Source: an uncultured Acidimicrobiia bacterium
Lineage (GTDB): Bacteria; Actinomycetota; Acidimicrobiia; Spongiisociales; UBA5794
Assembly: GCA_963823505.1 (NCBI GenBank)
Contig: CAWGLY010000004.1
Coordinates: 68,807-132,806 of the forward strand
Direction: 5' to 3'
DNA: 64,000 nucleotides
Position numbers and translations under genes: made by a program. Positions 5,826-25,585 of this stretch are shown piece by piece; position 1 is the first letter of the stretch; every line of letters starts with the position of its first letter. The notes beneath the pieces are model-generated. The model did not search any database. It saw only the letters and a list, made by a program, of their open reading frames with translations, and was not told the DNA's origin.

Positions 5826-5963
5826 AGTGTCTCACCTATGTCAGCCGGCGAACAGGGATTCGACGACAGACCGGCCCGGTAGGGCCCGGCGAGAGCCGGT
5901 GGGCCAAGGTTTGTGGAGGCGGACAAACGGGGCTCCTGTGGGAGCCCCTCCGCATTTCTGGGA
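5826..5963 (+). repeat. repeated structured element, copy A (candidate ncRNA or REP-like element)
   Basis: The conserved 5' core is gtgtctcacctatgtcagccggcga..ggattcg. The 3' hairpin is ggggctcc-tgtg-ggagcccc, followed by ctccgcatttctgg. It is homologous to the copies at 7556 and 25441. Confidence 0.6.
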
Positions 5964-6187
5964 GGTCTTCACGTCGCACGCTCCTCTTTCGCACGGTCTA
6001 CCGCACTTCGAGGGGGCCCAGGAATCGGGCGATGACACCGGCGTGATCGGGCGAGGTATGGCCACGCGGATGAGCCGCAAGGCTCATCGTGTGTGGACGG
6101 CCTGCCGCGTACCGTGGCGGCATGGGCCGAATCGTTGGAATGGATCGTGGCCGGGAACCCCGTGACGTCGCACGGCGTCCGACCTTC

Positions 6188-7486
6188 ATGAGAGCCAAGG
6201 TACTTCTGGGATTGGCCGCCGTCGTGTTGAGCGCGTGCGGCGGTGGGGCCACTGCGACTCCTGCGCAGCCGGGCGAGCGGGCGACCACGACAGCGTCCGT
6301 AACGCCGACCTCCTCAGCGACAACACAGCCAACGACGGTGCCGGGAGGCACTGCATCCGACCTCGCCCCGCTCAACGAGGCGAGGAGCCGCTGGGCTGCC
6401 GCAAATATGAGCACCTTCAGCTACGTGTTCGAGGACGATTGTGGCGAGTGCATGCCGGTTTCGCAGCAGGTCGTCGTGTGGGACGGCGTTCTCGCTTCAG
6501 GTGGCGAGCCGGTCCCTTCGATCGAGGCGATGTTCGATGCCATAGAGTCTGCGATTGCTGACGGCCAAGCGGTGGACGTCGTGTACGACGACGAGCTCGG
6601 GTTTCCCGTGGACCTGTGGATCGATCGGGAGGCCCGTGCATATGACGGCGGGATCCACTGGCTGATCGAGGGCTTTTCAGGTCGGCTGCCGGGTGACGGC
6701 AGCTCGCTCGACGGGCTCGACGCGGCAGAGGCAAGATGGCAGGCCATGCGGCCCTTGGCGTACTCCTTCCGCACCACCATCATCTGCGACTGCGAGCTCG
6801 ACGGTTGGCTGCGGACCCGGGTCGAGGGCGTCGAGATCGTCGATTGGGAGATGGATCTGACAGTCGGAGACTCAGCGAGCTTTTCCCCACTCACCGTTGA
6901 CGAGCTGCTCGCCGATCTCCGGGAGCTGTTCTCCGCCGGCGTCGAGCAGCAAGGGGTGCGGGTCGGCGGGTCGGCCGAGTACCACCCTGAGCTCGGGTAC
7001 CCCGTGTGGGTCGGCCTCGACATCGAGGTGCTCGACCCCGAGAGCGAACTCGCCGACCTGCCGCCGCGGCTGATCTTCAGTATCGACCAGTTCAACGCAG
7101 AGGAGCCGAGTGGAGATCTTGGTTCCGCGACGAACCTCGATGAATTCCAAGTGGCAAGAGAGCGCTGGGTGGCCACGGGCCTCGTCGACTATCAGTACTC
7201 GCTCACGGTCCACGACATTCTCAGCGGTGACTACAGCGACCCGTACACCGTGATCGTGCTCGATGGCGCCGTGGCGACGGTCACGGCCGCCGACAACACC
7301 ATCGACGATCCGGAGCTGCCTGCCCTGCCGATCAATGACCTCTTCGACCGCATCGAGGTGTGGAGCCAGTCGGGAACACCGGCCGATGTGATCTACCACG
7401 AGGTGCTCGGCTATCCGGTCGTCGTGGTGCGGCGGTCGGGAGATACGCCCCTTGCGTTCTCCATCAGCGACCTCGTCGAGCGCTGA
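6188..7486 (+). CDS. lipoprotein with three internal repeats of an unknown domain
   Basis: Signal peptide plus lipobox (MRAKVLLGLAAVVLSACGG). Three internal repeats carry a D-V-V/I-Y-x-E-L-G-F/Y-P-V motif (DVVYDDELGFPV, EYHPELGYPVWV, DVIYHEVLGYPVVV). Confidence 0.6.
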   Translation: MRAKVLLGLAAVVLSACGGGATATPAQPGERATTTASVTPTSSATTQPTTVPGGTASDLAPLNEARSRWAAANMSTFSYVFEDDCGECMPVSQQVVVWDGVLASGGEPVPSIEAMFDAIESAIADGQAVDVVYDDELGFPVDLWIDREARAYDGGIHWLIEGFSGRLPGDGSSLDGLDAAEARWQAMRPLAYSFRTTIICDCELDGWLRTRVEGVEIVDWEMDLTVGDSASFSPLTVDELLADLRELFSAGVEQQGVRVGGSAEYHPELGYPVWVGLDIEVLDPESELADLPPRLIFSIDQFNAEEPSGDLGSATNLDEFQVARERWVATGLVDYQYSLTVHDILSGDYSDPYTVIVLDGAVATVTAADNTIDDPELPALPINDLFDRIEVWSQSGTPADVIYHEVLGYPVVVVRRSGDTPLAFSISDLVER

Positions 7487-7555
7487 TTCCCGACCCGGGT
7501 CTGGCGCCTCATTTGCGCCGCCACAGCCGGTCGTGGTGTCAGATCGGGCCTGACC

Positions 7556-7668
7556 GTGTGTCGTACCTATGTCAGCAGCGAGTGAGGATTCGGGCAGACG
7601 GCGGGACGAAGGTCTCAGTACCAACGGCGGATGAACGGGGCTCCTACGGGGCCCCCTCCGCATTTCTG
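7556..7668 (+). repeat. repeated structured element, copy B (short variant)
   Basis: Core gtgtcgtacctatgtcagcagcgagtgaggattcg, then the 3' hairpin ggggctcc-tac-ggggcccc (G-U wobble compatible), then ctccgcatttctgg. Confidence 0.6.
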
Positions 7669-7735
7669 GCCCTCCATCTGGGGGGCAGGGCTGGCCCTCC
7701 ATCTGGGGGGCAGGGCTGGCCCTCCATCTACGCGG
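7668..7735 (+). repeat. 25-bp tandem direct repeat, about 2.6 copies (ggccctccatctggggggcagggct)
   Basis: Two perfect units and a partial third lie immediately 3' of element copy B. Confidence 0.7.
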
Positions 7736-7869
7736 CAGGGATCGCCCCCGGTGGGGGCAACACCGCATGCCAGTGACGGCAACACCCAGTAGCCGGACCG
7801 GGACCCCAAGGCGCACACTTGAACTCTCGGGGATGGTTCGCGCCATCCGTAGCTTCCAATGGGGGAACG

Positions 7870-9291
7870 ATGTCCAGCAAGGTAGACCCAGACGTAGACG
7901 TGCTCGTGATCGGTGGAGGCCCGTCCGGATCGACGGTGTCCACACTTCTGGCGCAGCATGGACATCGAGTGAGGGTGTTCGAACGGGCGAAATTCCCTCG
8001 CGAGCATGTTGGAGAATCGCTGCTGCCGTACTGCTTTGGCATCCTCGATGAATTGGGTGTCCTCGAGCAGATGAAGGACCAGGCGGTCCGCAAGCCTGGT
8101 GTGCGGTTCGTCGACGTCGATGGGCGGCATCACACCACCTGGTGCTTCGGTCATGTGATCAAGGATGAGAGTCATCTGTCGTTCCATGTGCGGCGCGACC
8201 GCTTCGACGACATGCTGCTCCGCAACGCCGAGTCTCATGGCGTCGACGTGTTGGAGGAGACCCGAGTGACGGCAGTCGAACTCGACGGTCCCGACGGGCT
8301 GGTCACGGTCACCGCAACCGGGCCTGACGGCGAGGAGCGCATCCACACCGGGAAGTACGTGGTCGACGCCAGTGGGCGGGACACGTTCATCGCCAACCGG
8401 ATGGGCTGGAAGAAGGCCCACGACGAGCTCGACCGAGTCGCCACCTCCACCCACTGGGAGGACGTCGAGTTCAACGGCGGTCTGGAGGAGGGACTGCTCC
8501 AGATCGTCTATTTGGGCGGCGAGAAGAAGGGGTGGATCTGGGTCATCCCCGTCGGCGCCACCCGCGTTTCGATCGGCATCGTCGTGAACAACGACTACTT
8601 CAAGGCGCAACGCAAGGCGCTGCGAGCCGCCGGATCCGAGGACTGGAAGCGGGACTTCTACGTGCAGGAGCTGGAGTCCTCGCCCTTCGTCGGTGAGGTG
8701 ATCGCTACCGGCCACATGGTGGCGGAGCCGGTGGTCAACGGCGACTATTCCTACAAGAGCGAGACGAAGTACGGAGACAACTTCGCCTTGGTCGGTGACG
8801 CGCACACGTTCATCGACCCCATCTTCGCCAGCGGCATCTTCCTGTCGATGAACAGCGCAAGCCTCGTTGCCGGGGCTTTGCACGAGGGTCTGACCACGTC
8901 GCCGGAGACCGGCAGGAAGGCACTCGACGGTGCGTACGAATCGATCGCCGGTGCCTACGGGCTGGTGGAGAAGGCCATCCGGCTGTTCTACGACCCGACC
9001 GCGATCAACTTCGCCCAGGCGGCTTCGGCCGAGGATCTCATCCACGAACGGCACAAGAATGCGCTTGCCAGCATGCACTACCTACTCGCCGGTGACTTCT
9101 TCAACCGCCACGAGGAGTACAGCAAGGTGATCGATCTCCTGGCTGACCCCAGCCTGTTTGCGAAGTACAAGTCGTTCGTGATCGATCGTCACGACGAGGC
9201 CACTTCATCGTGCGGCATGGACCGCGCCCAGGTGTTCAGCGAGTTCCTGCTCCGGGAGAGCGCCGCATCGTCTTCTTCCCCTCCCTCGTAG
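7870..9291 (+). CDS. FAD-dependent oxidoreductase, flavin-dependent halogenase/geranylgeranyl-reductase-like
   Basis: Dinucleotide-binding motif VLVIGGGPSGS near the N-terminus. GDAHTFIDPIFASGI is characteristic of the Trp-halogenase/GG-reductase clade. The long antisense ORF 7615..9078 is rejected. Confidence 0.75.
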   Translation: MSSKVDPDVDVLVIGGGPSGSTVSTLLAQHGHRVRVFERAKFPREHVGESLLPYCFGILDELGVLEQMKDQAVRKPGVRFVDVDGRHHTTWCFGHVIKDESHLSFHVRRDRFDDMLLRNAESHGVDVLEETRVTAVELDGPDGLVTVTATGPDGEERIHTGKYVVDASGRDTFIANRMGWKKAHDELDRVATSTHWEDVEFNGGLEEGLLQIVYLGGEKKGWIWVIPVGATRVSIGIVVNNDYFKAQRKALRAAGSEDWKRDFYVQELESSPFVGEVIATGHMVAEPVVNGDYSYKSETKYGDNFALVGDAHTFIDPIFASGIFLSMNSASLVAGALHEGLTTSPETGRKALDGAYESIAGAYGLVEKAIRLFYDPTAINFAQAASAEDLIHERHKNALASMHYLLAGDFFNRHEEYSKVIDLLADPSLFAKYKSFVIDRHDEATSSCGMDRAQVFSEFLLRESAASSSSPPS

Positions 9292-9416
9292 GCAGAGGTT
9301 CGGCCACGCCGGGGAGCGGTTCTGACCCGCATCGGCAACCAGCCGTGTCGATCGGCTAGCTCCCGCGTCTCGGCGCTTCGGCGTAGGATGCGTTTGGGAC
9401 TCGAGAGGGAGACGTC

Positions 9417-10313
9417 ATGAGGGACCGCCGCGGCACCCGCCGCCTTGGAATCGTGCTGTTGTTCGTTCTGGTCGCATCGATGGTTGCCTCGGTCGCCCAT
9501 GCGGCGCCGGCTGCCGGCGTGCACGAGCAGGACGTCGCCATTGCCGCTGGTGACCACGACATACCGGGCACGCTGACGATGCCGCAGGGCGTGCGCGGTC
9601 CGGTGCCTGCCGTGTTGATGTTGCACGGCTTCGGCAGTTCCAAGGACGAGGTTGGCGACATGTACGCCAGGGTTGCCGAGGACCTTGCAGCGCTCGGTGT
9701 CGCCAGCTTGCGTATCGACTTCGCCGGAGCTTCGGATGCCGCGCAGCCGTGGGTGGACAACACCTACGACGGCATGGTGGCGGACGGCAGAGTTGCCTTG
9801 GATTGGCTGATCGACCTCCGCCGCGTCGACGATGACCGCGTTGGCCTGCTCGGCTTCAGCCTGGGGACCAAAGTGGCGATGTCTGTGGCGGGCACCGATC
9901 CTCGGGTGGCGGCCTTTGCGTCGTGGTCGGGAAGTGCGGCCAACGGGAGTGAGGATTTCCAGTTCTACTTCGACGAGTACTACGACGATGCCCTGGCCAA
10001 CGGTTCGGTGGTGGTCGACCTCGGCTTCACCGTTGTCGAGCTCAGTATCGAATGGTTCGAGACGATCGCGGCCTCGAACAACCTCGATCTCATCGCCGGC
10101 TACGACAACCCGATCCTTGCCATCGCCGGCTCGGACGACGCCACGGTGGACCCTCGCTGGTCGAGGACGCTCATCCATGCCGCAGGCAGCGACGACACGA
10201 CGTTGCGGATCATTCGCGGGGCGGACCACATCTATCACGTGCTCAGTCCCGACCAATCCTTCGCCGAACGGGTGATGAGTCTCACCGCCAAGTGGTTTGC
10301 GTCACGCCTCTGA
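9417..10313 (+). CDS. secreted alpha/beta hydrolase (dienelactone hydrolase/peptidase S9-like)
   Basis: Signal peptide present. The nucleophile elbow is GFSLG, and HGFGSSKDE is present. Alpha/beta-hydrolase length. Confidence 0.7.
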   Translation: MRDRRGTRRLGIVLLFVLVASMVASVAHAAPAAGVHEQDVAIAAGDHDIPGTLTMPQGVRGPVPAVLMLHGFGSSKDEVGDMYARVAEDLAALGVASLRIDFAGASDAAQPWVDNTYDGMVADGRVALDWLIDLRRVDDDRVGLLGFSLGTKVAMSVAGTDPRVAAFASWSGSAANGSEDFQFYFDEYYDDALANGSVVVDLGFTVVELSIEWFETIAASNNLDLIAGYDNPILAIAGSDDATVDPRWSRTLIHAAGSDDTTLRIIRGADHIYHVLSPDQSFAERVMSLTAKWFASRL

Positions 10314-10349
10314 GGTGACGCGTTTTCCGCCGCACGCCTGAGGGCCGTC

Positions 10350-12035: not shown

Positions 12036-12143
12036 AGAACTCCCAGGTCCGGCGAGACCTTAGACGCCGGCGTGGTGAACGTTCCGGGCACTCGAATCGA
12101 CCGTGGGCATCCGGCAGAGGTTCACCCCATGGGATCCTCGCCG

Positions 12144-12881: not shown

Positions 12882-13009
12882 GTCGTCCCCTCTGAAAGAC
12901 GCTCCAGGTGCCGGGTCCTCGTCAGGATGCCCGGACGCCGTCAACCTACGGGAGCGAGCTTGGAAACGACTTGGAATGGGCGGCGCCTCGTACGACTGCG
13001 GTCGAGGCC

Positions 13010-15673
13010 TCAGCGGTCGTCACCGCAGGCAGGGTCAAACCGGCTTTCGCCCATCACGTTCGGCCAGCTCCGCGACAGGTCCCAACCGTCGAGCCACTCG
13101 CAGAGCCGGTCGGGCCAGAGCGTCCACTGTGAGTCCCACACCACGGCTCCACCGTTGATATCGACGGCGACGAGTTCGCGTCCCTCGTCGGCGAACACCA
13201 TCGCTCGGACCGCCCCCGAATGGCGCATCTCCCCGACCTGACTCCACGTTGCGACTTCCCACAGACGGATGGCGTTGTCCTGGCTACCCGAGGCGAGCGT
13301 AAGCCCGTCCGGCGACACGGCCATGCCTCGGATGGCGTTGGTGTGGGCGCTCCAGTCCCGGACGACCGTGCCGGTACCCGCATCGACGACAGTGATGACT
13401 CCCAGTTCGTCGCCGACCGCGACGAGGCCATCGCCCAGCGCAACCACTGCATTGGCCTCGTTTTCGACGATCGGGACATCGATCGTCTGCGTACGGGTCG
13501 TGAGGTCCCAGACGCGCAGATGCCCGTCGGCGCCGGCGGTGGCGAGGGTCTCATCGTCGAGGAAGGTCGCTGCCTTGAAGCCTTTGCGGTCCTCGACGGG
13601 CAAGCCAAAGGCGGGGTAGAGCGGCTGCAACGTGCGGGGATCTCTGATCACGATCGTGTAGTTGCCGCCAACGCTGACGACCGCTTCGCCACCGGGCGCC
13701 GTTTCGATGTCCCAGACGCCGCCCGGATGATCGGCCAAGAAGCGGACCCCTTCTTCGTCGGCAACTCCCAATTCCCCCTCACTCGTCCCGAAATACGCAG
13801 AACCGGGCTCGAGTCCGCTGGTCACGGAAAAGACGTAATCGTCGAGATCGAACGAACGGCCCTCTCCGCTGCTGCGGTCCCAGTGGTAGATCCCCGCCGC
13901 TCCTCCGATCCACGTTGCTTGATCGGTGACCACAACTGACCGGTAGTCGGCGGCGATGCTGCTGGGTGGCGGTTCGGTTCCGAGATGCAGCCGATAGAGA
14001 CGAACGCGATCGCTCACCGCTGCGACGAGAGAGTCGCCACCGGGAGAAAGGGCATGATGCTGCGTCGCCAGTGCTGTCGTGCTCCCGATGGGTACCGGGT
14101 TCGCCAGGTTGCCTTCGCTGTACGTCCACACCAACACCCCACCGGTACCGGACGAGATGAGTGTCCGACCGTCCGGCGAGAAGGACAGCGATCTCTGCTG
14201 GGCGTCCAGCGGGCCGATCGGCAGTCCGACCGGGGCCAGTGTGCCGGCGTCCCGGACGACGAGGGTCCGGTCTTGGTGCCCGGTGATCACATGATCGTCA
14301 CCTGGTGAGAAGGCCGCGCTCCACACAATCTGCTCCAGGTCCCCGAGGTGGTACGCCAGCAGATCTCCGCTCCTGATGTCCCAGGACGCAATCATCAGGG
14401 GAGAGCCCATCGTCAAGAGCCGCTTCCCATCTCCGCTGACGGCGACACGTCGGATCTCGAGCGTCTCGGCCCGTGTCTCCGACTCGGATAGGGGGATCTC
14501 GTCGAGGGCGTATTCCAGGACCATGGAAGGTCCGCCTGGTCCGACGCTGAACAAGGTCACCGAAGCCGTCGTGGCCACCACCACGGCGTCATCTGGGGCG
14601 ACCACGATGTCGACGATGAGATCGTCGGTGTGCATGATGGGCGTCGCGGCGCGTTGATCGACGTCCCACACCAGGATGTTCCCATCGCTGTCGCCCGTCA
14701 CCAATGAGCCATCGTTCGTGAAGGCGATCGCCGAACCATGACCCGAGAGTGGCAGCTCGCCCAAACGGGCCCCGTCGGCGACATCCAGCAGCACCACCTG
14801 ATTGGCTGCACCGGTCACGGCGGCGACGCCGCGGTCCCAGTCGACGGCAACGTGCCCGGCAGCGGATTCGCCGTCATCACCAACCGCTGCACCCCACACC
14901 TCGCGGCCGTTGACGATCCGGCCGATGGGAATCAAGGCCGTCGGCGACGCCTCGATGGCATGCGACTCTGCCAGCCCTATCGCTGCCCCTTCGGTATCGC
15001 CGATGGTCATGAGGTATTCGGCGTCGCCAACCAGCGCAAGTGCCGCCAGCGAGCGCGCCCGTGTCGCCGATGAGGTCGCAAGGACGGCAAGCACCATGGC
15101 GATGAGCGCGGCCGAAGCGAAGGCTCCCATGATCACGCGGCGGCGGGTGCGGCGGGACCGTGCCTCCTGGTCTCGGTGGGTGATTCCCGCATCGATGAAC
15201 TCGCGCTCTGAGCTGGTCAATGGGAACACTGGTTCTGCGGACCACTCCTCGAACTGCAGGAGCCGCCGGCCGCGGGGGAGCAGGTCGGCGTCGCGGGAGC
15301 CCTTCTCCCACTCGTCGACGGCCGCCGTCAGCCGGCGCTGGATGATCAGAGCCTCGCGTTGTTCCGAGATCCACGTCCTCAGCAGCGACCACTCGCGCAG
15401 CAGCGCCTCGTGAGCGACCTCGACCGTCGGGCCGCGGGACACCGGGTCGCGGTCAAACGTCACCAGCCGGGCTTCCCCGTAGTCGCTCAGCACCCGATCC
15501 AGCCCTTCTCTGTCGAGCCCGAGACTGCGAAGCTCAGACAGGCGGACTCGATGCCGCACGTCGTCGGCGTCATCGGTGACGGACACCAAGCGGAGGAACA
15601 CCTGCCGTGCGACCGCCTGGGTCGGCGCATCGAGACTCGGCGTAGATCTGCGTGGCTCGCTGTTCGACGGCAC
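13010..15673 (-). CDS. C-terminal part of the same giant protein: STAND helical region, transmembrane segment, WD40 beta-propeller repeats
   Basis: It begins, in the adjacent frame, with QAVARQVFLRLVSV, the canonical continuation of nSTAND NTPases. Multiple WD40 repeats end in WD/WS dipeptides (IRLWEV, LRVWDL, ILVWDV). Confidence 0.7.
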   Translation of the reverse strand: MPSNSEPRRSTPSLDAPTQAVARQVFLRLVSVTDDADDVRHRVRLSELRSLGLDREGLDRVLSDYGEARLVTFDRDPVSRGPTVEVAHEALLREWSLLRTWISEQREALIIQRRLTAAVDEWEKGSRDADLLPRGRRLLQFEEWSAEPVFPLTSSEREFIDAGITHRDQEARSRRTRRRVIMGAFASAALIAMVLAVLATSSATRARSLAALALVGDAEYLMTIGDTEGAAIGLAESHAIEASPTALIPIGRIVNGREVWGAAVGDDGESAAGHVAVDWDRGVAAVTGAANQVVLLDVADGARLGELPLSGHGSAIAFTNDGSLVTGDSDGNILVWDVDQRAATPIMHTDDLIVDIVVAPDDAVVVATTASVTLFSVGPGGPSMVLEYALDEIPLSESETRAETLEIRRVAVSGDGKRLLTMGSPLMIASWDIRSGDLLAYHLGDLEQIVWSAAFSPGDDHVITGHQDRTLVVRDAGTLAPVGLPIGPLDAQQRSLSFSPDGRTLISSGTGGVLVWTYSEGNLANPVPIGSTTALATQHHALSPGGDSLVAAVSDRVRLYRLHLGTEPPPSSIAADYRSVVVTDQATWIGGAAGIYHWDRSSGEGRSFDLDDYVFSVTSGLEPGSAYFGTSEGELGVADEEGVRFLADHPGGVWDIETAPGGEAVVSVGGNYTIVIRDPRTLQPLYPAFGLPVEDRKGFKAATFLDDETLATAGADGHLRVWDLTTRTQTIDVPIVENEANAVVALGDGLVAVGDELGVITVVDAGTGTVVRDWSAHTNAIRGMAVSPDGLTLASGSQDNAIRLWEVATWSQVGEMRHSGAVRAMVFADEGRELVAVDINGGAVVWDSQWTLWPDRLCEWLDGWDLSRSWPNVMGESRFDPACGDDR

Positions 15674-18557
15674 CGCGAACTCCGCCGACGCTGTTGTAGG
15701 CGGCGACGGTGATCGAGCCGTCGGTCGATGCTGCTACCAGACCGGCCAGCACGAACTGCATGAGCGGAAGTGCCCCCGGTTGGCCGCGCACGTCGGCCAC
15801 GATACGATCCGCCAGCCCCGGCTCGAGACGAATCCCTGCGGCTTCAGCCGGGCGGACGATGGCCTCGGTGAGCTGGTCGGCGTCGGGCGTTCCGATGGCC
15901 AGGTGCGCATCCCGGACTCGCCCAGACAGCATGTCGTCGACGAGCGGCCGGTCGAAGAAGTCGGCGCGTATCGTTGCGACGACCTCGAGCCGTGACTGTG
16001 GAGCATCCACAGCCTCGACGAGCGCCGCGACGAAAGCCCGGCGAGTGGCTTCGTCGGTGAGCGAATACAACTCCTCGAACTGGTCGATGACGAGCACGAG
16101 ATCGCCGCGGACTCCCTCCACTATGCGTGCGACGAGCCGCGAGAGCCCATCCACATGTGAGCGAAGACTGTCCGCAGCATTCTCCAGCGGCGTCGTCGCG
16201 ACCCGGCCCAGTGCGGTGGCGAGCTCATCGAACGGATGTTTGCCCGGCGTCATCACCACCGAGGTCCAAGTTGCGACGTTCCGGCCATGGTTCGAGGACA
16301 ACGCCGGCAGCAACCCGGCCCGCACCAGAGAGGACTTGCCCGATCCCGACGGTCCGACCACCGTCACGAACCGATGGTGGGCGACGAGGTCGGCGAGCTG
16401 CTGGATCTCGGTGTTCCGTCCGTAGAAGTCGCGGGCGTCCGCGACGTCGAATGCGGCCAGTCCCTTGTACGGGTTGCGTACCGCCACGGCAGCTACCGGG
16501 CCTGGGGAGACCGACAGGTCGCCGGCAGACTGCAGCGCCTCCAGGAACTCGCCAACGGACCCAAAGCGCTCACTCGGGTCTACGGCGCAAGCTCGCCGCA
16601 GCGCGTCGGCCATGCCGTGGGGGAGCTGGTCGGTGCCGGCGGTGTCGGGAAATCGACCCGTCAACAAAGCGACAGCCACCGCTCCGAGTGAGTAGATGTC
16701 GGTGCGCTCGTCGATGGGATCCCCGGAGCGCTCCTCGGGCGCCCGGAACGTGGGGGCCGTGGTCGGAATCTCGGAGACCTGTTTCAGGGTCGGTAGGGCA
16801 ACGCCGAAGTCGGCGACATAGGCATTGCCGTCCGCATCGAGGAGGATGTTGGCCGGTTTGATGTCGCGGTGGATCACCCCCTCCCGGTGGGCGTAGCTGA
16901 GCGCCGAGCCGACCTGAGCCAGCAACGTCATCGCACGCTCGACGGTCATCTCCCGGTCGGTTGCGTCGGCCAGGCTGCCGCCTGCCATGTGGGGCATCAC
17001 GAAGTAGGCCCCTTCGGCGTCACGCCAGAAATCGTGGAGGGAGACGATGTGGGGGTGCTCCAGCCTGGCGACGAGGCGGGCTTCGCTTTCGAACCTGCGC
17101 ACGTACTCGGGGTGGTTGGCGAAGTCGCCACGGATTGCCTTGATGGCGACCTCGCGGCCGACAGACGGCTGGTATGCCCGGTAGACCACGCCGAAGCGGC
17201 CGGCGCCGATCCGTTCTCGCAGCTCGTAGCCGCGGATGGCGTCGCCGGACCCACGTCCCATCTCGGTTGCGGAGGCGTCGGTGCGGAGAGCTGGGAAGTC
17301 GGAGTTCATGCCCTCTGCAACGAGTTGATACGCCGGCAGCGGCGCACCCAGCCCACGAAAGCCATGCTCGCCGAGGTTCAAGATCTGGATGCCGGCCTCG
17401 CTACGCAGTGCGTCCCGGGCCGCCTCAGTCAGGACGATTTGGCCAGGATGACCGGCGGCCATGAACCGCAACGCTCGGAGTAGCGGGGGGCCGTGGAAGT
17501 CACCGGCCTGGGCCTCCACCTCTCCGGCGTCAATCGCCATCCGGACCTCGACGGGCACGAGTCGGTCCCCTTCTGAGTTGAGCCGCCGATGGGCTGCGAC
17601 CGCCACCGTGGCGGCAGATCGCACGTCGGCAAACGCCGCCACGGTGGTGTCGCCGGTCCTGCGAAAGATCCGACCGCCGGCTGCTTCCACTGCGTCGGTG
17701 ATGACCCGGTCGTGAAGCGCCATTGCTTCGCGTACAGCCTCGCTGCGGAGCTCCCAGAGCTCGGCCGGCACCGAGACGTCGACGGCCAGGAACGTCACGT
17801 TCTGGGTCACCACGTCAGACGCACGCAGCAGATCCGGATCGTGGGTCAAGATCCGATGCTCGAGGTCCTGCAGTTCTGGCGAAGGGTCGACGCCGAGTTC
17901 TTCAACGAGCACATCACGGGTCGCCTGATAGGCGCGCAACGCTTCCGCTTGGCGCCCGTCGCGATAGAGGGCGAGCATGTGGCGCGCACGGGACCCTTCG
18001 TTCAGTGGGTGCTCCGCTGCCAGTGCTTCCAACTCGCCGATCACCTCACGGTGCCGGCCGTTGGCGAGATCGGCGTCGATGCGCGCCATCACAGTGGCGA
18101 TCCGCAAGTCCTCGAGTCGGCGCACTTCACCCTCGAGGCCTGGCACGTCGACGAGGTCCGCGTACGGCCGTCCCCGCCACAACGACAAGGCCTCCCGTAG
18201 CCGCTCGGCAGCTGCGGGTGCGTTGGTCGCCACCAGATCACGACCTTCGCTCGCCAGGCTCTCGAAGAGGACAGCATCGATGTCACCAGGCGTGGCCTCG
18301 AGTCGGTAGGTGCCGCCGTTCCGTTCGATACCGCCACCCAACACCGCTCTGAGGTTTGACACGTAGGAGTGGATCGAAGCGCGCACGGCACTCGGTGGCG
18401 ACTCACCCCACACCCCGTCGATGATCTGGTCTGTGGACACGGGTTTGGTGGCGGCGGCGATCAGCATCGCCAACACCGCACGCTGCTTGGGTCCGCCCAG
18501 TGGTGCAGGCGTCCCGTCGGACTCTGCAGCCATCGGCCCCAGCACCAGGAACCTCAT
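15570..18557 (-). CDS. N-terminal part of a giant signalling protein: SARP/BTAD, class III adenylate/guanylate cyclase, Ser/Thr protein kinase, STAND P-loop NTPase (reading frame broken at its 3' end)
   Basis: SARP region: MRFLVLGPMAAESDG...WRGRPYADL. Cyclase domain: VTFLAVDVSVP...RRTGDTTVAAFAD. Kinase motifs: GAGRFGVVYRA, HRDIKPANILL, DFGVA. Walker A: VVGPSGSGKSSLVRAGLLPAL. The ORF ends at a frameshift; see the finding. Confidence 0.75.
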   Translation of the reverse strand: MRFLVLGPMAAESDGTPAPLGGPKQRAVLAMLIAAATKPVSTDQIIDGVWGESPPSAVRASIHSYVSNLRAVLGGGIERNGGTYRLEATPGDIDAVLFESLASEGRDLVATNAPAAAERLREALSLWRGRPYADLVDVPGLEGEVRRLEDLRIATVMARIDADLANGRHREVIGELEALAAEHPLNEGSRARHMLALYRDGRQAEALRAYQATRDVLVEELGVDPSPELQDLEHRILTHDPDLLRASDVVTQNVTFLAVDVSVPAELWELRSEAVREAMALHDRVITDAVEAAGGRIFRRTGDTTVAAFADVRSAATVAVAAHRRLNSEGDRLVPVEVRMAIDAGEVEAQAGDFHGPPLLRALRFMAAGHPGQIVLTEAARDALRSEAGIQILNLGEHGFRGLGAPLPAYQLVAEGMNSDFPALRTDASATEMGRGSGDAIRGYELRERIGAGRFGVVYRAYQPSVGREVAIKAIRGDFANHPEYVRRFESEARLVARLEHPHIVSLHDFWRDAEGAYFVMPHMAGGSLADATDREMTVERAMTLLAQVGSALSYAHREGVIHRDIKPANILLDADGNAYVADFGVALPTLKQVSEIPTTAPTFRAPEERSGDPIDERTDIYSLGAVAVALLTGRFPDTAGTDQLPHGMADALRRACAVDPSERFGSVGEFLEALQSAGDLSVSPGPVAAVAVRNPYKGLAAFDVADARDFYGRNTEIQQLADLVAHHRFVTVVGPSGSGKSSLVRAGLLPALSSNHGRNVATWTSVVMTPGKHPFDELATALGRVATTPLENAADSLRSHVDGLSRLVARIVEGVRGDLVLVIDQFEELYSLTDEATRRAFVAALVEAVDAPQSRLEVVATIRADFFDRPLVDDMLSGRVRDAHLAIGTPDADQLTEAIVRPAEAAGIRLEPGLADRIVADVRGQPGALPLMQFVLAGLVAASTDGSITVAAYNSVGGVRGAVEQRATQIYAESRCADPGGRTAGVPPLGVRHR

Positions 18558-19131: not shown

Positions 19132-19370
19132 TCCGGGGCGGTTCCGGCAGCAAGTCGGCGAGCGGACTCAATCAACGATGGATCGGCTGGTTGGCGCCGG
19201 TAGGCAGCGACCAACTCCTGGTCGGCAGTTGCGAGTTCTTCGGCGCTGATCAATGCCTGGGCGCCTCGGCGGAGCAGCTCCGATCGGTTGGTGCCCAACC
19301 GAGTCGCGAGCGCGTCGAGTTGTTCGACGAGAGCATCGTCCAGCTGCACGAGAACTTGCCGTCTGGCCAT
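19125..19370 (-). CDS. mazE: ribbon-helix-helix antitoxin (MazE/CopG-like)
   Basis: An 81-aa RHH-type protein (MARRQVLVQLDDALVEQLDALA) immediately upstream of and overlapping mazF. Confidence 0.65.
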   Translation of the reverse strand: MARRQVLVQLDDALVEQLDALATRLGTNRSELLRRGAQALISAEELATADQELVAAYRRQPADPSLIESARRLAAGTAPEW

Positions 19371-19371
19371 G

Positions 19372-19391
19372 ACCATATGGTATCACATATG
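19372..19391. promoter_or_regulatory. two adjacent palindromic half-sites CCATATGG / CATATGG at the mazEF start (candidate antitoxin operator)
   Basis: The sequence ccatatggtatcacatatgg lies directly upstream of the mazE start codon. RHH antitoxins autoregulate through such repeats. Confidence 0.5.
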
Positions 19392-19530
19392 GGTTCGGGG
19401 GTTTGGGAGCTGCAAGTGCCGAGACGTCGGTTCTTCTATTTCGTAGACGTATCGCCGGCCAGTGACACGACCTCACTCGCCGGCGCGTGTGCGTAAGGTC
19501 GGTGGAGGGCATCTACTGGGAGGTTGGCGC

Positions 19531-19920
19531 ATGAAGCATCCGAACTTGGAGAACATCGAGAAGGCGTATGCCGCGTTTGCCGAGGGAGACATCGCCACGA
19601 TCATGGAGTTGTGGACGGACGACATCGTCTGGCACACGGCCGGGAACCACCCGCTGGCGGGCGATCATGCGGGGAAGGATGCGGTGGCCGCCTACCTCGG
19701 TGGTGTGGTGCAGACAACGGGCGGGACGTTCCGTGCCGAGCTGCAGCACGCCCTCGCCGATGACACCAATGGCTACAGCCTGCACAAGGGCACGGGGACG
19801 AAGGACGGGGAGGAGCTGGAGGGATGGTCCATCCTCGGGTATCGCTTCAGGGACGGCAAGGTCGACGAGATCTGGACCTTCGACTACGACCAGCGCATCA
19901 CCGACCGTCTCCTCGGCTGA
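19531..19920 (+). CDS. SnoaL-like/NTF2-fold protein (ketosteroid-isomerase-like)
   Basis: About 130 aa with NTF2-like features (KAYAAFAEGDIATIMELWTDDIVWH). Start at MKHPNLEN. Confidence 0.6.
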   Translation: MKHPNLENIEKAYAAFAEGDIATIMELWTDDIVWHTAGNHPLAGDHAGKDAVAAYLGGVVQTTGGTFRAELQHALADDTNGYSLHKGTGTKDGEELEGWSILGYRFRDGKVDEIWTFDYDQRITDRLLG

Positions 19921-20986: not shown

Positions 20987-20996
20987 GGCGCCTCTT

Positions 20997-22016
20997 TCAG
21001 TCCGAGAGCAGCGACTTCACTCCCGCAACGATCTTGTCCGCGTCGGGCATCACGAACTGCTCGAGCACCCTGGCGTACGGGATCGGCACGTCCGGGATGG
21101 CGATGCGCGCAGGAGGTGCATCGAGATAGTCGAAGGCACCTTCTACGGCAGTGGTGATCACTTCGCCGGTCATCCCGAAGCTGCGGTAGTCCTCGTCGAC
21201 CACCAGCAGCCGGTGGGTCTTGCGCACCGATTCGAGGATCGCTTCCCGGTCGAGCGGCACGAGCGACCGGAGGTCGAGGACCTCTGTCGAGATGCCGTCG
21301 CCTTCCAGCCGCTCAGCCGCGTCGAGCGCACGGTGCACCGACAGGCTGATGGTGGCGACGGTGACGTCTGTGCCCTCCCGGGCGACGGCCGCCTTGCCGA
21401 TGGGCACGGTGTACGCCTCCTCCGGCACGGCACCGGTGGCGCGAGGGTTGTTCGTCATCCAGCCAAGGCCGAGGACGCCCTTGTGGAACATGTACAGCAC
21501 CGGGTTGTCGTCCCGAATGGCCGAGATCATCAGCCCTTTTGCGTCGTGAGGGTTCGAGGGAGCCACGACCTTCATTCCCGGCAGGTGAGCGAACGTGCCC
21601 CACAAGGTCTGGGAGTGCTGGCCGGCGTCTGAGTAGCCGCCGCCCACGGCGGTGGTCAGCACCATCGGCACCTTGATGTTGCCGCCCGAGAAGTAGTGGA
21701 TCTTCGCCATGTTGTTGTAGATCTGATCCATACACACGCCGAAGAAGTCGACGAACATCAACTCTGCGATCGGCCGCATCCCGTTGGTGGCCGCACCAAT
21801 CGCCGCTCCGATGAATCCTGTCTCCGAGATGGGCGTGTCCATGACCCGCTCAGGCCCGAAACGATCGAGGAGACCTTCCGTGGCGCCGAAGATCCCGCCG
21901 TATACGCCGATGTCCTCACCGAGGACGAAGACAGTTTCGTCCCGCTCCATCTCCTGGGCGATGGCCTCGGCGATGGCCTTCTGGGTGGTGAGCTTGCGCT
22001 CGGTCATCGTGGTCAT
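20997..22016 (-). CDS. acoB: TPP-dependent dehydrogenase E1 component, beta subunit
   Basis: Transketolase-like pyrimidine-binding and C-terminal domains; conserved along the length with PDH/acetoin E1-beta. Confidence 0.85.
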   Translation of the reverse strand: MTTMTERKLTTQKAIAEAIAQEMERDETVFVLGEDIGVYGGIFGATEGLLDRFGPERVMDTPISETGFIGAAIGAATNGMRPIAELMFVDFFGVCMDQIYNNMAKIHYFSGGNIKVPMVLTTAVGGGYSDAGQHSQTLWGTFAHLPGMKVVAPSNPHDAKGLMISAIRDDNPVLYMFHKGVLGLGWMTNNPRATGAVPEEAYTVPIGKAAVAREGTDVTVATISLSVHRALDAAERLEGDGISTEVLDLRSLVPLDREAILESVRKTHRLLVVDEDYRSFGMTGEVITTAVEGAFDYLDAPPARIAIPDVPIPYARVLEQFVMPDADKIVAGVKSLLSD

Positions 22017-22024
22017 CGTCCCTC

Positions 22025-23011
22025 CTATGCGAATACGTGGAGGAGCGCGTCCTCCGGGGCGGGCGCAGGGCTGGTGCGGGCGAAGGCGATGGCCGCATCC
22101 ACTTCGCCGTGCATCCGCTCGGCGATGGTGTCGCGGTCCGCGTCGGTCAGGACGCCCTCCTCGATGAGGCGGGCGCCGAACACGGTGATCGGATCCCGCT
22201 CGCCCATGGTCTCCTTGAACTCATCGCTGCGGTAGGCGTCGGCATCTCCCTCGAAGTGACCCCACAACCGGTCGGTCTTCACCTCGATGAGGCTGGGACC
22301 GCCGCCGGCGCGGGCCCTGGCGATGGCTTCGCGGGCGACCTCGTATACCGCAACGGGGTCGTTCTCCGGCACGAGCACCCCCGGCATGCCGTAGGCGGAG
22401 GCCCGGTCGCTGTTGTCGGGGATGGCCGTCGACGCCTCCTTCGGCACCGAGATTGCGTAGGCGTTGTCTTCGCAGATGAACACCACGGGGAGATTCCACA
22501 ACGCGGCCAGGTTCAGCGACTCGTGGAATGCACCCTGGTTGGCTGCGCCCTCGCCGAAGAACGAGATCGCCACGTTGTCCTTGCCCAGCTTCTTGAATGC
22601 GAGCGCGGCGCCGACCGCAACCGGCATGCCCTCGGCGATGATGCCGGAGCACCCGAAGTTGGGTGCAGCCGAGTAGAGGTGCATGTGGCCGCCCTTGCCG
22701 TGGCCAAGCCCAGTGTCCTTGCCGAATATCTCGGCGGCCATCTTGTTCAGGTCGAGGCCTTGGGCGATGGCGACGTGGTGCGGCCGGTGGGTGGCCGTGA
22801 TGGCGTCGCCTGCTTTCAGGTGCGGCATGACTCCGACGGCCACCGGTTCCTGCCCTGCTGCGAGGTGCATCTCGCCGGGAACCTCGCCGGCTGCGATATC
22901 GAAGGCGGGAAGCTTGTCCGCAAAGTAGATCTCGCGGATACGCTCCTCGAAGTAGCGGATCTTGACCATCGTCGTGTACATGTCGACCAGGTGCTCTCGA
23001 GGTATCTGCAT
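22025..23011 (-). CDS. acoA: TPP-dependent dehydrogenase E1 component, alpha subunit
   Basis: TPP-binding motif GDGAANQG-like (FFGEGAANQGAFHE). Start at MQIPREHL behind a GGAAGGGAG RBS. Confidence 0.85.
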   Translation of the reverse strand: MQIPREHLVDMYTTMVKIRYFEERIREIYFADKLPAFDIAAGEVPGEMHLAAGQEPVAVGVMPHLKAGDAITATHRPHHVAIAQGLDLNKMAAEIFGKDTGLGHGKGGHMHLYSAAPNFGCSGIIAEGMPVAVGAALAFKKLGKDNVAISFFGEGAANQGAFHESLNLAALWNLPVVFICEDNAYAISVPKEASTAIPDNSDRASAYGMPGVLVPENDPVAVYEVAREAIARARAGGGPSLIEVKTDRLWGHFEGDADAYRSDEFKETMGERDPITVFGARLIEEGVLTDADRDTIAERMHGEVDAAIAFARTSPAPAPEDALLHVFA

Positions 23012-23084
23012 GCAGGCTCCCTTCCGTCGGCGGCCCACCGCGCGCAGGCCGGACGTTCGCATGATCTCGTGTCGACCCTACGCG

Positions 23085-24122
23085 TCAGGAACGGCCGGTG
23101 GTCGGGCCGAACGGCACGTTCTCTTGCCGCGCCTGCGAGTTGGCGGCGAGCGCCCTCGACACCGAGAGGAGGAAGGCCCCAGCAGTGACCTCGATGAAGG
23201 GGTTGTCGCCGCGAACCAGGCGCCGCTCCCCGTCGAGGGCGACGACGCGGGTGGCCGGTTGCAGGTCGATCGTCGTGCCTTCGGGGATCGTGTCGTGTTC
23301 CGCCACCGAGATCTCGCCGACGAGCCCGGGCCCGAAGATCGCCCGCACGCGGTGCCCGCCACCGAAGCGGATGTAGCGGGCGTGTCGTGGCGGTATCGGG
23401 CCGAGGGCGGATGCGACCGATGCGATACCCACCGCTTCCGGGCGGGCGTTTGCGACGACGGCTTCAACCAGATCGTCCGGTTCCCACAGCGCCCGGGCCC
23501 CCGTCCAGTGGGTGCGCACGCCCACTGCGTCGACGACCGCAGTGCTGGGTTCTGCATCTCCGGTGCGGAGGATCATCGTGGTGAGCTGGTCGTACGTGTG
23601 GTCAGGCACACAGCCTGCCGCGGCCAGCGCGGTTGCGTAGCCCACCATCGTCGGCTCGTGACCGATGGCCACCGCATTGTTCGTGCCGGCAGCGAGGGGG
23701 ACGAGCCGGGCGTCCGGCCAGGCTTCGACGGCGGAGCGGATCGTGCCGTCTCCACCGACGGTGACGAGAGCGCGGGCTCCCATGGCGGCCAGGAGGCGGG
23801 CTGCGTCGTACGTGTCGCGCTCGGTGGCGGTGGCTGCCATGGGGAGGAAGCGCACCGGTGGGCTCGTGCCTCGCGACATGCGGAGCGCTCTTTGCACCAT
23901 GCCGCCCGAGTCGTCGAGCGCCACGACCTCGACGGGGGGCCCGGCGGTCATGCCGACGAGGAGCCGTGCGATGAGGTTGGCCTTCTCCTCGACGTCGACC
24001 ACGCGCGCCAGACCGACGAGGCGCCGGATGTCCTTCGACGCCATCGGGTTTGCGATCAACCCGACGACGGGCAGCCTCTCATCGACGGGGCCCGAACCTT
24101 CCGTAGCCGTCGCAGGTGACAT
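23085..24122 (-). CDS. acoX: ATP-NAD kinase/diacylglycerol-kinase-fold protein (AcoX-like), upstream in the E1-E2 operon
   Basis: GGDGT motif in the NAD-kinase fold. Its position upstream of the E1 alpha/beta/E2 genes matches acetoin operons. Start at MSPATATEG. Confidence 0.6.
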   Translation of the reverse strand: MSPATATEGSGPVDERLPVVGLIANPMASKDIRRLVGLARVVDVEEKANLIARLLVGMTAGPPVEVVALDDSGGMVQRALRMSRGTSPPVRFLPMAATATERDTYDAARLLAAMGARALVTVGGDGTIRSAVEAWPDARLVPLAAGTNNAVAIGHEPTMVGYATALAAAGCVPDHTYDQLTTMILRTGDAEPSTAVVDAVGVRTHWTGARALWEPDDLVEAVVANARPEAVGIASVASALGPIPPRHARYIRFGGGHRVRAIFGPGLVGEISVAEHDTIPEGTTIDLQPATRVVALDGERRLVRGDNPFIEVTAGAFLLSVSRALAANSQARQENVPFGPTTGRS

Positions 24123-24190
24123 GCCACCCACCCTATTGCCCCGTTGCCGCCGGCGCCCCTGCGGCTGGGCGCCACCGGCAGGCGTCGTCG

Positions 24191-24628
24191 TCAGTTGTCC
24201 AGCTCGATCGCCACCATCACGACGGCGTCCGCAACTCGAGCCAGCTCGGCATCGTCGGGGTGCCATCGTTTCCCGAAGAACTTCGGTCGACCTGAGGGCG
24301 TCGTGTAGGGGAATCGGCTCACGTACTCGCGGACATACCGGGCTCGCGCCGCAGCGTTGGTGATGAGGTGCGCCGTGCCCGCTCGATCCACGCCGCGCAG
24401 CCGGACCGTCACCGCCTCAGGAGTCTCGAAGTTGCGCCACCACGTCTTGCCGCCGGGTGCCCCTGCCCAGATGGCCAGCGTGGTGCCATCCTCGAGGTAC
24501 TGCAACGGCAGGGTGAACTGCTTGCCCGAGCGCCGGCCGGTGTAGGTGAGCAAGAGCAGGCTGCGGCTCATCATGCCGTGGAGCGGTGAACGCAGCACGG
24601 CTGCCATGATCGAGTTGCCAAAGCTCAC
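24191..24628 (-). CDS. deazaflavin(F420)-dependent nitroreductase-family protein (DUF385 family)
   Basis: The LLLLTYTGRRSGKQFTLPLQY signature of the F420-binding nitroreductase family is present. Confidence 0.7.
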   Translation of the reverse strand: MSFGNSIMAAVLRSPLHGMMSRSLLLLTYTGRRSGKQFTLPLQYLEDGTTLAIWAGAPGGKTWWRNFETPEAVTVRLRGVDRAGTAHLITNAAARARYVREYVSRFPYTTPSGRPKFFGKRWHPDDAELARVADAVVMVAIELDN

Positions 24629-24641
24629 GGTGCGCTCCTTC

Positions 24642-25220
24642 TCAACGTTCCAGCAGGTGATGGATCTCTCTCACTTCCTCCAGCAGCGCGTGCAGATCGG
24701 TCGTCCCGCCATTGCCTGTTGCCGGATCATGGTGCGGCTCCAGCCTTCTGATGCGGTTGCGCAACTCCTGGTGCAGCTCGGCGGGATGATGCTGTCCCGC
24801 AATGCGGCCCTCGTAGCCCGTGGCCGTCTGGTTCTGCCCGGCGGTCTGAACGTCGATCGAGCCGATGTGCAGCCACCGGTCGTACAGCGAGCGGTGGAGC
24901 CGGAAGTCGGTGATCATCCGGAACGGGATGTTCTGGTCGACCTTGGAGAGGATGCCCTTGTGGATGATGACCTCGTCCGCAGTGACCTCGTAGGACAGGT
25001 TGCGAATCCACAACCATGCGATGGGGGCACCGATGATCCACATCGCGGCCAGCGCCGAGCCGACGACGATCCACATGATGGGCACCGCCTGGCCCGGGTC
25101 GTCAGCGGCGAGATTGATGATGAGCGTGGCGACCCCGGCCCCGGCTGCGACGAACGTGGTGATCGTGGCGAACGTCATCCATGCCTTGGTGTAGAGCTTC
25201 CGCACGGGTGTGAGCTTCAT
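24642..25220 (-). CDS. membrane protein with bacterial PH (bPH_2/YdbS-like) domain
   Basis: Two TM helices followed by a PH-like domain (EVTADEVIIHKGILSKVDQNIPFRMITDF). Confidence 0.6.
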   Translation of the reverse strand: MKLTPVRKLYTKAWMTFATITTFVAAGAGVATLIINLAADDPGQAVPIMWIVVGSALAAMWIIGAPIAWLWIRNLSYEVTADEVIIHKGILSKVDQNIPFRMITDFRLHRSLYDRWLHIGSIDVQTAGQNQTATGYEGRIAGQHHPAELHQELRNRIRRLEPHHDPATGNGGTTDLHALLEEVREIHHLLER

Positions 25221-25440
25221 GCTTCCTCCTCGACAGCGCACCTCCCCATTGGACCTCAGTGGACTTGCGGCAGATAGGGGAAGTCGTCGATGGCGATCGG
25301 GACCGCAACCCGCGGCTCGCCGGACCGAGAGCGACGCCGGCGAGGGTTCCCGGCACGTTCCCTGCGATCACCCCTAGGTCGATCGGCTCGGGGTCGGTCG
25401 ACTCATTCCGGCTGGGAGGGTGACAGACGGGTGGTCGGGG

Positions 25441-25585
25441 AGTGTCTTACCTATGTCGGCAGCGAATGAGGATTCGGAAGCAGGCAGGCCCGGTAGGGAC
25501 CCGCAGGTAGGAACGGGTGGGCCAAGGTTTCATACAAAGGGCGGATGAACGGGGCTCCGAGAGGGGCCCCCTCCGCACGTCTGGG
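25441..25585 (+). repeat. repeated structured element, copy C
   Basis: Core agtgtcttacctatgtcggcagcgaatgaggattcg. It shares cccggtaggg and ggtgggccaaggttt with copy A. The 3' hairpin is ggggctcc-gaga-ggggcccc, then ctccgcacgtctgg. Confidence 0.6.

Follow-up and report, generated by a model that had tools for sequence, protein, structure and literature searches.

A candidate family of structured small RNAs in uncultured Acidimicrobiia

Background

What is the element that recurs three times between protein-coding genes in a 64,000-nucleotide stretch from an uncultured Acidimicrobiia bacterium (GenBank assembly GCA_963823505.1, contig CAWGLY010000004.1, positions 68,807 to 132,806 of the forward strand; hereafter the window), and at what level does it act? 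The Acidimicrobiia, a group of Actinomycetota that is abundant in soils and waters, are for the most part uncultured, and almost nothing appears to be known of their regulatory RNAs; a look through the literature on RNA motifs of this class turned up nothing relevant. A preceding inspection of the letters alone, which we term the sequence-only reading, had recognized the three segments and proposed that they function as RNA, be it as a small RNA (sRNA) family, an attenuator or terminator, or an element resembling the repetitive extragenic palindromic (REP) sequences or mycobacterial interspersed repetitive units (MIRUs), rather than by coding for a protein. Here we show that the element adopts a single fold retained by compensatory change in six copies from three genomes, and consider it about an even call that these copies represent a lineage-restricted family of trans-acting or protein-binding structured sRNAs.

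Results and discussion

Three copies of a non-coding element in the window

The window (G+C 65.7%), whose proteins find their closest named relatives in metagenome-assembled genomes of Acidimicrobiia, harbors three copies of a non-coding repeat element, all on the plus strand, whose core RNAs span 5825-5963 (copy A), 7556-7671 (copy B) and 25440-25586 (copy C). The sequence-only reading had placed three copies at these sites, and the sequence itself, a MAFFT alignment of A, B and C (mean column identity 75%), an independent repeat finder, which also retrieves the common blocks D1, D4, D8, D9, D10 and D13, and a covariance model all concur. This first covariance model, trained on copies C and A together with a copy from outside the window (D, see below), detects the window copies with E-values of 3e-41 to 4e-20, with C scoring 163 bits (E 3e-41), A 137.9 bits (E 1e-34) and B 82.9 bits (E 4e-20). 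A broader second covariance model, run over the 64 kb with all filters off, yielded no fourth copy in the window, the next best match having an E-value of 0.17. The previously described 5' core, the GGATTCG block and the tail CTCCGCA(TT/CG)TCTGG are indeed present, as are the blocks common to A and C (CCCGGTAGGG and GGTGGGCCAAGGTTT). The extent of the unit had been drawn too small, with the conserved sequence continuing about 60-75 nt farther upstream.

A common fold maintained by compensatory change

One fold fits all six known copies, namely A, B and C of the window and D, E and F of other genomes. In this fold, the helix P1 (ACCU/AGGU) closes a three-way junction carrying P2 and the optional P3, and is followed by the long GC hairpin P4. 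P2 comprises GUC/GAC, two further pairs and a CGAAU/AUUCG hairpin presenting a conserved GAGG(A) loop, while P3 comprises the outer stem GGCCC/GGGCC, the conserved internal loop GGUAGGG and a variable, freely covarying inner stem. A variable linker of 8-14 nt joins the P1 domain to P4, which is long and very conserved and consists of GCGGA/UCCGC, the internal loop UGAAC and then GGGGCUCC/GGGGCCCC. The whole is flanked by the strand GAGUGUCU on one side and the 3' tail CAnnUCUGG on the other. Copy A displays P1 through P4 and the tail UCUGG, with the internal loop GGUAGGG and the inner stem CCGGC-GAGA-GCCGG in its P3 and a UGUG loop in its P4. Copy B is devoid of P3, with 8 nt in its place, and shows a G-U pair in P2 (CGAGU/AUUCG) and a P4 with a UAC loop and a U-G pair. 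In copy C, the covariance-model fold places P1 at 25449-25452/25525-25528; P2 at 25455-25457/25483-25485, with its hairpin at 25463-25467/25472-25476 (loop GAGG); P3 at 25487-25491/25519-25523, with its inner stem at 25499-25503/25514-25518; and P4 at 25541-25545/25572-25576 and 25551-25558/25563-25570 (loop GAGA), all on the plus strand.

In a model-guided alignment of the six copies, standard pairs occupy 93.6% of the 203 pair cells, as against 34-56% in slid controls. Changes on both sides are seen in eight pairs, a count reached by none of 500 shuffles (shuffle mean 2.7) and standing at 1-3 in the slid controls, and the covariation score is 0.162 versus 0.03-0.06 in the latter. For instance, P1 reads AUCU/AGAU in copy E and UACCG/CGGUA in copy F, and the inner stem of P3 reads CCGGC/GCCGG in A, ACCCG/CGGGU in C and AUCUGC/GCAGAU in D. 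The true compensatory changes lie in P1, P2 and P3, not in the GC hairpin, which is where the sequence-only reading had located them. The three variants of that hairpin exist as it described, but only one side differs between them (GGAGCCCC versus GGGGCCCC, facing GGGGCTCC), turning a U-A into a U-G pair on one strand; one wobble substitution, confined to one hairpin, does not amount to covariation, and the original argument was accordingly weak. Its conclusion of function at the RNA level rather than coding is supported on other grounds, namely the shared fold, the double changes in P1 through P3, and the wobble pairs, loops and indels described next. Thus, across the six homologous sequences, in an alignment fitted to the model, base pairs are maintained by compensatory substitution in the manner of a structured functional RNA.

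Read on the plus strand, the paired positions contain 11 G-U cells versus 3 A-C cells, and the terminal loops include GAGA (P4 of C and P3 of A) and UUCG (P4 of D). The excess of G-U pairs together with these GNRA and UUCG loops identifies the plus strand as the folding strand. The conserved blocks contain indels of 1, 4 and 5 nt; in copy A, a 1-nt insertion between ATGTC and GGATTCG changes the reading frame. As these core indels are not multiples of three, a protein-coding role is excluded. We had considered a short plus-strand peptide initiated at the ATG within ACCTATGTC, which we rejected because the 1-nt indel of copy A shifts its frame.

A narrow distribution and no relative among known RNA families

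A scan of GTDB, with one genome per species, for the strict 5' core returned a sole true match, copy D, in a locus from an Acidimicrobiia metagenome-assembled genome (MAG; locus L001). Copies E and F were located by fetching DNA around homologues of the neighboring SnoaL and signal peptidase proteins and searching it with the covariance model: E lies at 14833-14979 and F at 8710-8858 of a locus (L034) from another Acidimicrobiia species, and F is also present in a second locus (L035), so that the family counts six members from three genomes, with A, B and C in one, D in another and E and F in the third. Across the family, the covariance-model scores range from 76 to 149 bits. The 5' core is divergent in both E (ATCTCTGTC) and F (TACCGAAGCC), and hence exact-pattern scans under-count the family. 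Strict-pattern scans of the JGI metagenomes and of viral contigs yielded 4 and 25 matches, respectively, all of them chance; the most conserved 3' block gave no match in the viral contigs, and the 216-nt unit had no BLAST match among plasmids and phages. Copies were likewise missing from the SnoaL and signal-peptidase loci of other relatives (L036-L051). In the collections searched, the element has a narrow distribution, occurring only in a few uncultured Acidimicrobiia genomes, and its copy number is low in the DNA scanned, with three in 64 kb of the window and one strict-pattern match in a 4.2-Mb MAG contig.

None of the 4227 families of Rfam 15 matched the window at gathering thresholds. 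At E-values up to 10, the regions around A, B and C gave only two chance-level partial overlaps of copy A (CC2171 and Manganese, E>2), and at E-values up to 1 nothing fell on the element around E and F. The sequence-only reading had named membership in an Rfam family, or hundreds of copies lacking conserved structure, as the outcomes that would speak against it; the element belongs to no such family, and in the DNA scanned here it is not present in hundreds of copies. Based on these sequence comparisons, the element appears to be a credible new orphan RNA family with no known relative among the Rfam families.

Gene neighborhoods disfavor a leader or a component of an adjacent system

Copy A is lodged between the genes for an SRPBCC protein and a DUF6174 protein, and copy B between the latter and the gene for a halogenase-like FAD enzyme. 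The claim that both are situated upstream of plus-strand genes holds; these code for the DUF6174 protein and the halogenase-like enzyme, respectively. In contrast, copy C had been placed between convergent genes, which is wrong, as both its flanking protein genes, coding for a bPH_2 protein (24642-25241) and an ABC-2 permease (25684-26511), are on the minus strand. Copy D has a phosphoesterase gene on its downstream side; E is flanked by an FAD monooxygenase gene and a Uma2 fragment, and F by a signal peptidase gene and an acetyltransferase gene. Each of C, D, E and F has a convergent gene downstream, the stop codon of which is 12-98 nt away.

These neighborhoods bear on the proposal that the element is a cis-acting leader or riboswitch-like aptamer whose expression platform is the GC hairpin and which controls the gene downstream. 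The arrangement of two three-way junctions, one nested in the other, with conserved strands at the junctions and a peripheral hairpin that can be dispensed with, does resemble the architecture of aptamers, and A and B precede same-strand genes. Nevertheless, the start codons given in the public annotation lie some 200 nt or more from A and B, whereas C, D, E and F have no same-strand downstream gene to regulate, which makes a leader role unlikely for the family. Further, the neighboring genes share no function, P4 does not overlap P1 so as to provide a switch, and no U tract follows it. The leader or riboswitch reading is thus largely refuted by gene context, with only A and B being placed as 5' untranslated regions would be, and we assign it a very small probability.

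The same neighborhoods speak to the possibility that the copies are orphan or satellite units of an RNA that belongs to a machinery encoded at another site, for example a nuclease or recombinase with its guide or bridge-type RNA, or else of a small self-cleaving ribozyme. The element is highly structured, multi-copy and furnished with conserved internal loops, and the region is rich in genes of conflict and defense systems (STAND NTPases, CHAT, Uma2 nucleases, type I restriction-modification and McrBC-like systems). Yet none of the six copies has a conserved protein gene next to it, no ribozyme or known guide-RNA model of Rfam matches, and no variable guide-like segment is evident except for the P3 stem and the linkers. 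Hence, we regard this proposal as quite improbable.

An old interspersed repeat as the principal rival

A more serious contender is an old, low-copy, non-autonomous interspersed repeat akin to REP, BOX or miniature inverted-repeat transposable elements (MITEs), which was spread or shuffled among intergenic sites and whose hairpins act only when co-transcribed with their neighbors, for example as transcript-end stabilizers or as terminators for convergent genes. The element is multi-copy where it is present and missing from the same positions in related genomes; its copies are always intergenic with unrelated flanks, and four of them abut the 3' ends of convergent genes. Its build is modular, with P3 being optional, and a variable tandem array grows from the end of copy B. 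Moreover, copy E belongs to a segment present in L034 and absent from the 98%-identical L035, and a 2.9-kb indel, a segment missing from locus L032 of a relative, has copy B at its edge; both placements would also fit a mobile element.

Against this, alignment of the C, D and E boundaries revealed neither terminal inverted repeats nor target-site duplications. There are no near-identical copies: the window copies are mutually 55-85% identical, unlike the many similar copies of a MITE, and identity within a genome (55-77%; A-C 0.76, A-B 0.77, E-F 0.64) is not above that between genomes (C-D 0.83, B-D 0.84). As within-genome identity is no higher and terminal repeats are lacking, a recently active mobile repeat is disfavored; the pattern appears to be that of old paralogs under selection rather than of a recent burst. 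Additionally, only three copies are found in the 64 kb and one strict-pattern match in the 4.2-Mb MAG contig, the plasmid, phage and viral collections gave no matches, and the ORFs annotated in the window include no transposase or REP-associated tyrosine transposase (RAYT) gene. Finally, the four helices kept by compensatory changes, along with the conserved unpaired blocks, exceed what a simple terminator would need. On balance, we consider such a repeat unlikely, though by no means negligibly so. No tRNA or tmRNA genes that might have served as integration targets were found.

The 25-bp tandem repeat reported 3' of copy B was recovered by Tandem Repeats Finder at 7666-7747 on the plus strand, with a period of 25 and 3.3 units of CTGGCCCTCCATCTGGGGGGCAGGG, and begins within the final bases of the copy. 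In a JGI metagenome contig that is 99.2% identical (L031), this array is shorter by exactly one unit and copies A and B are without any substitution; the copy number of the tandem repeat varies between strains. The unit CTGGCCCTCCATCTGGGGGGCAGGG itself echoes the 3' end of the element (CCCTCC..TCTGG). With respect to the indel, 7487-10349 of the window corresponds to 4983-7940 of L032 from a distant relative (GCA_041597755.1), where the DUF6174 gene is directly followed by an MFS/cNMP-binding gene; the 2.9-kb insertion or deletion comprises copy B, the tandem repeat, the halogenase-like gene and a hydrolase gene.

We also observed that a SnoaL_2 gene lies 1-6 kb from a copy in all three carrier genomes (19447-19920 in the window, 411-917 in L001 and 10001-10390 in L034), while the SnoaL loci of the relatives L036, L037, L047, L050 and L051 have no copy; this association may simply reflect a shared, rearranged variable region.

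Upstream boxes and the question of a promoter or a DNA-level element

The upstream part of the unit contains two boxes common to five of the six copies (A-E), F being without them. Their layout is box1 (GGGTCGnnCGnCTCATT), a spacer of 12 nt (C, D and E) or 22 nt (A and B), box2 (GTGwmAGm), and then 12-13 nt up to GAGTGTC. On the plus strand, copy A has both within 5765-5811 (box1 GGGTCGGGCGGCTCATT at 5765-5781, a 22-nt spacer, and box2 GTGTAAGC at 5804-5811), and copy B within 7497-7543 (box1 GGGTCTGGCGCCTCATT at 7497-7513, a 22-nt spacer, and box2 GTGTCAGA at 7536-7543). The upstream region of copy C (25377-25427, plus strand) opens with a 10-bp palindrome or hairpin (25377-25386/25394-25403), followed by a box1 ending in CTCATT (to 25407), a 12-nt spacer and box2 GTGACAGA (25420-25427); this region is conserved in D (L001) and E (L034) despite their differing flanking genes. 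The pattern TG[AT][AC]AG-N14-16-GTGTC has seven matches in about 300 kb, five of which are copies of the element.

The promoters of the ECF41 group of extracytoplasmic function sigma factors have the consensus TGTCACA-N16+/-1-CGTC (PMC3426412). Box2 and the start of the core read TGTCAGA-N15-TGTC in B and E, TGACAGA-N15-TGTC in C and D, and TGTAAGC-N16-TGTC in A, so that both hexamers and the spacing are similar. The match is nevertheless imperfect, the window has no sigma factor gene, and copy F is without boxes. Further, a start site at the usual distance would fall inside P1 and remove its covarying 5' strand, on account of which we treat the promoter reading of the boxes as unproven. The sole other match of box2 and GTGTC in the window (TGTCAG-N15-GTGTC at 27567-27542, minus strand) is upstream of the ABC transporter operon adjoining C, and could be due to chance, the expectation being 0.2 per window.

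The boxes might instead suggest an element operating at the level of DNA, such as clustered binding sites for a regulator or recombinase, or palindromes, whose RNA structure is incidental. In keeping with this, box1 contains the palindromic half-site motif GTCGAnCG, the two spacers between the boxes differ by exactly 10 bp (12 versus 22), i.e., one helical turn, and P4 is a near-perfect palindrome. However, pairing rather than sequence is what the double compensatory changes of P1, P2 and P3 maintain, G-U pairs outnumber A-C pairs, and GNRA and UUCG loops are present. We deem this the least probable of the proposals weighed here.

Two further observations concern box1. In B, C, D and E, its CTCATT sequence shows 7-10 bp of complementarity to the 5' half of P2. 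Additionally, a 10-codon ORF starts from box1 on the strand opposite to the element, at 25406-25374 (minus strand) for C (MSRPTPSRST*) and at 4167-4199 (plus strand) of L001 for D (MSRTTRSRST*); the two show several synonymous-type differences and a stop codon at the same position, and a related start is seen in E (MSRAARYRST...). This stretch may code for a peptide, form a hairpin or be bound by a protein.

A possible closing helix and the 3' end

RNAalifold, applied to the extended sequences, proposes a further helix, P0, in which the 12-nt spacer pairs with bases just past UCUGG. The pairing on the plus strand is suggestive in C (25432-25436, UGGUC, with 25585-25589, GGCCA) and in B (7546-7550, GGGCC, with 7668-7672, GGCCC, in a register shifted by two), and takes the form of UCGGC/GCCGA in D and of an 11-bp helix in E, with none in A. 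Minimum-energy folding yields it for B, D and E. Paired cells amount to 74% versus 62% in shuffled sequences, and the covariation is 0.44 versus 0.22, a value reached by 10 of 500 shuffles. These figures are suggestive of a possible closing helix P0. Were it real, the GC hairpin would be an internal helix of an RNA of about 165 nt and not a terminator.

The P4 hairpin is followed by the tail CAUUUCUGG or CACGUCUGG and by no U tract, and thus departs from an intrinsic terminator as usually defined. Terminators of actinobacteria can lack U tracts, and by analogy P4 could conceivably serve as one despite the missing tract. The interval that separates copy C from the end of the ABC-2 permease gene contains a GC-rich hairpin at 25638-25659, followed by T-rich runs on both strands (TTTGGTG on the plus strand and TTTCGGTGGGTT on the minus strand), which makes it a bidirectional terminator-like site.

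A lineage-restricted family of structured sRNAs?

Among the options offered by the sequence-only reading, an sRNA family agrees best with the findings, and an attenuator or leader does not agree with them; a REP- or MIRU-like element lacks its defining features. More generally, the features that define a MITE, a riboswitch, an intrinsic terminator, a REP/REPIN or a MIRU are absent or only partly present. We accordingly favor, at roughly even confidence, a lineage-restricted family of trans-acting or protein-binding structured sRNAs. Under this proposal, the three repeats of the window would be paralogous genes, or gene-like units, for a plus-strand non-coding RNA of about 115-150 nt, or about 165 nt if P0 is real. 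Rather than serving as a leader of an adjacent gene, this RNA would act in trans as a folded particle binding a protein or another partner, with the G-rich loops GAGGA, GGUAGGG and GGAUGAA being the most likely contact surfaces. We posit a trans-acting particle because nearly all paired and unpaired blocks are conserved and not one seed, the neighbors are unrelated, and there is mostly no downstream gene. For the same reasons, it seems more likely than a classical base-pairing sRNA. By analogy, a sponge of the CsrA type would be one concrete version of it. The complements of the conserved loops in the window show no informative clustering near gene starts.

A bolder formulation, which we offer tentatively and hold to be possible rather than probable, is that the element represents an undescribed class of compact multi-junction RNA from a sub-lineage of the Acidimicrobiia. 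It would combine the P0/P1/P4 and P1/P2/P3 junctions with their conserved strands, bind a protein or small ligand in trans as opposed to being a base-pairing sRNA or a repeat, and be expressed from paralogs under a shared promoter of the alternative-sigma type.

Several observations weigh against a family of structured sRNAs. The statistics of the structure are drawn from only six sequences of three related genomes, and the alignment used to count pairs was fitted to the model, which favors structure. Transcription of the element, the ends of the transcript and the binding partner are all extrapolated from sequence. The promoter scan found no sigma-70-type promoter at any copy, the ECF-like alternative would place the start site within P1, and the terminator scan found no canonical intrinsic terminator at any of the three window copies. 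A tblastn search with two CsrA proteins detected no CsrA gene in the 313 kb scanned, and no partner protein was identified. The element is also patchy and clearly not ubiquitous: the covariance model found no copy in about 190 kb of other Acidimicrobiia DNA, the loci around DUF6174 homologues in L032 and L033 are without it, their intergenic spaces being too short or unrelated, and it is missing 3' of the signal peptidase gene, the orthologous spot, in L047 and L051. Lastly, the placement of E in a strain-variable segment and of B at the edge of an indel would also suit a mobile element.

A covariation-supported RNA family with no relative in the 4227 Rfam models joins the bacterial structured RNAs as a new orphan, and the model of its sequence and structure can be used to search new genomes and metatranscriptomes. 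With six copies in three genomes, its reach is limited, making it a catalogue entry and a lead rather than a field-changing find.

Other features of the window

On the minus strand at 13010-18557, an ORF coding for BTAD, Ser-Thr kinase and nSTAND1 domains (15570-18557) overlaps a second (13010-15673) that contains the rest of the nSTAND1 domain and WD40 repeats. As a single nSTAND1 domain is split over both, this looks like a single gene for about 1880 aa broken by a frameshift or an assembly error. Five paralogous genes for Uma2 (PF05685) nuclease-like proteins with similar 3' ends occur within 13 kb, all on the minus strand (31578-32225, 35314-36171, 40258-41256, 42611-43240 and 43706-44458); the Uma2 fragment directly 3' of copy E (15016-15279 of L034) is of the same kind. 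The segment 49451-61505 is a defense island coding for a type I restriction-modification methylase, an HsdR-like helicase, a Schlafen/AlbA_2 protein, a RAMA-domain protein and a McrBC-like pair (EVE + AAA_5; DUF2357 + PD-(D/E)XK). At 2339-4726, long ORFs overlap on both strands (795 aa on the minus and 514 aa on the plus strand); they match nothing in Pfam and give no clear G+C signal by codon position.

Comparison with known systems

The REP sequences and bacterial interspersed mosaic elements (BIMEs), BOX elements and MIRUs are, like the element, intergenic, structured and modular with an optional module, and often found at convergent gene ends; a variable-number tandem repeat also adjoins one of its copies. 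Unlike them, the element is low-copy and strongly diverged, forms no inverted pairs or tandem arrays, lacks a GTAG-headed pair of short palindromes and shows covariation over four helices. In particular, the GGTAGG found once or twice in P3 is in direct orientation with no CTAC partner arm, as opposed to the short palindromes of REP/REPIN, and there is no RAYT-like gene among the ORFs annotated in the window. Nor is the element ever in tandem in the manner of a MIRU, the only tandem feature being the unrelated 25-bp array 3' of copy B. Thus, a REP- or MIRU-like identity, while conceivable, is without the features that define either class.

As in CsrB/RsmZ, GGA motifs are displayed in loops, namely GAGGA in P2 (ACAGGGAU in A), UAGGGA in the internal loop of P3, UAGGAA in the P3 loop of C and GGAUGA in P4. 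In contrast to those RNAs, there are only 3-4 such motifs per copy, and the element is a compact junction fold rather than a string of hairpins, with no CsrA gene in the 313 kb scanned.

Paralogous sRNA families with co-conserved promoters are exemplified by the cia-dependent csRNAs of Streptococcus, Qrr of Vibrio and LhrC of Listeria, in which mainly a short seed is conserved and which act by base-pairing, usually under a known regulator. The element resembles them in having several copies per genome of about 100-150 nt each, dispersed or neighboring, in its upstream boxes at fixed spacing and strong 3' hairpin, and in its unrelated neighbor genes. It differs in conserving almost the whole fold, in having no identifiable seed or target and no known regulator, and in that its transcription is only predicted, and it shares no sequence homology with any of them. 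Hence, in its genomic layout the element resembles the paralogous sRNA gene families, while in the degree of its structural conservation it resembles the orphan structured RNA motifs.

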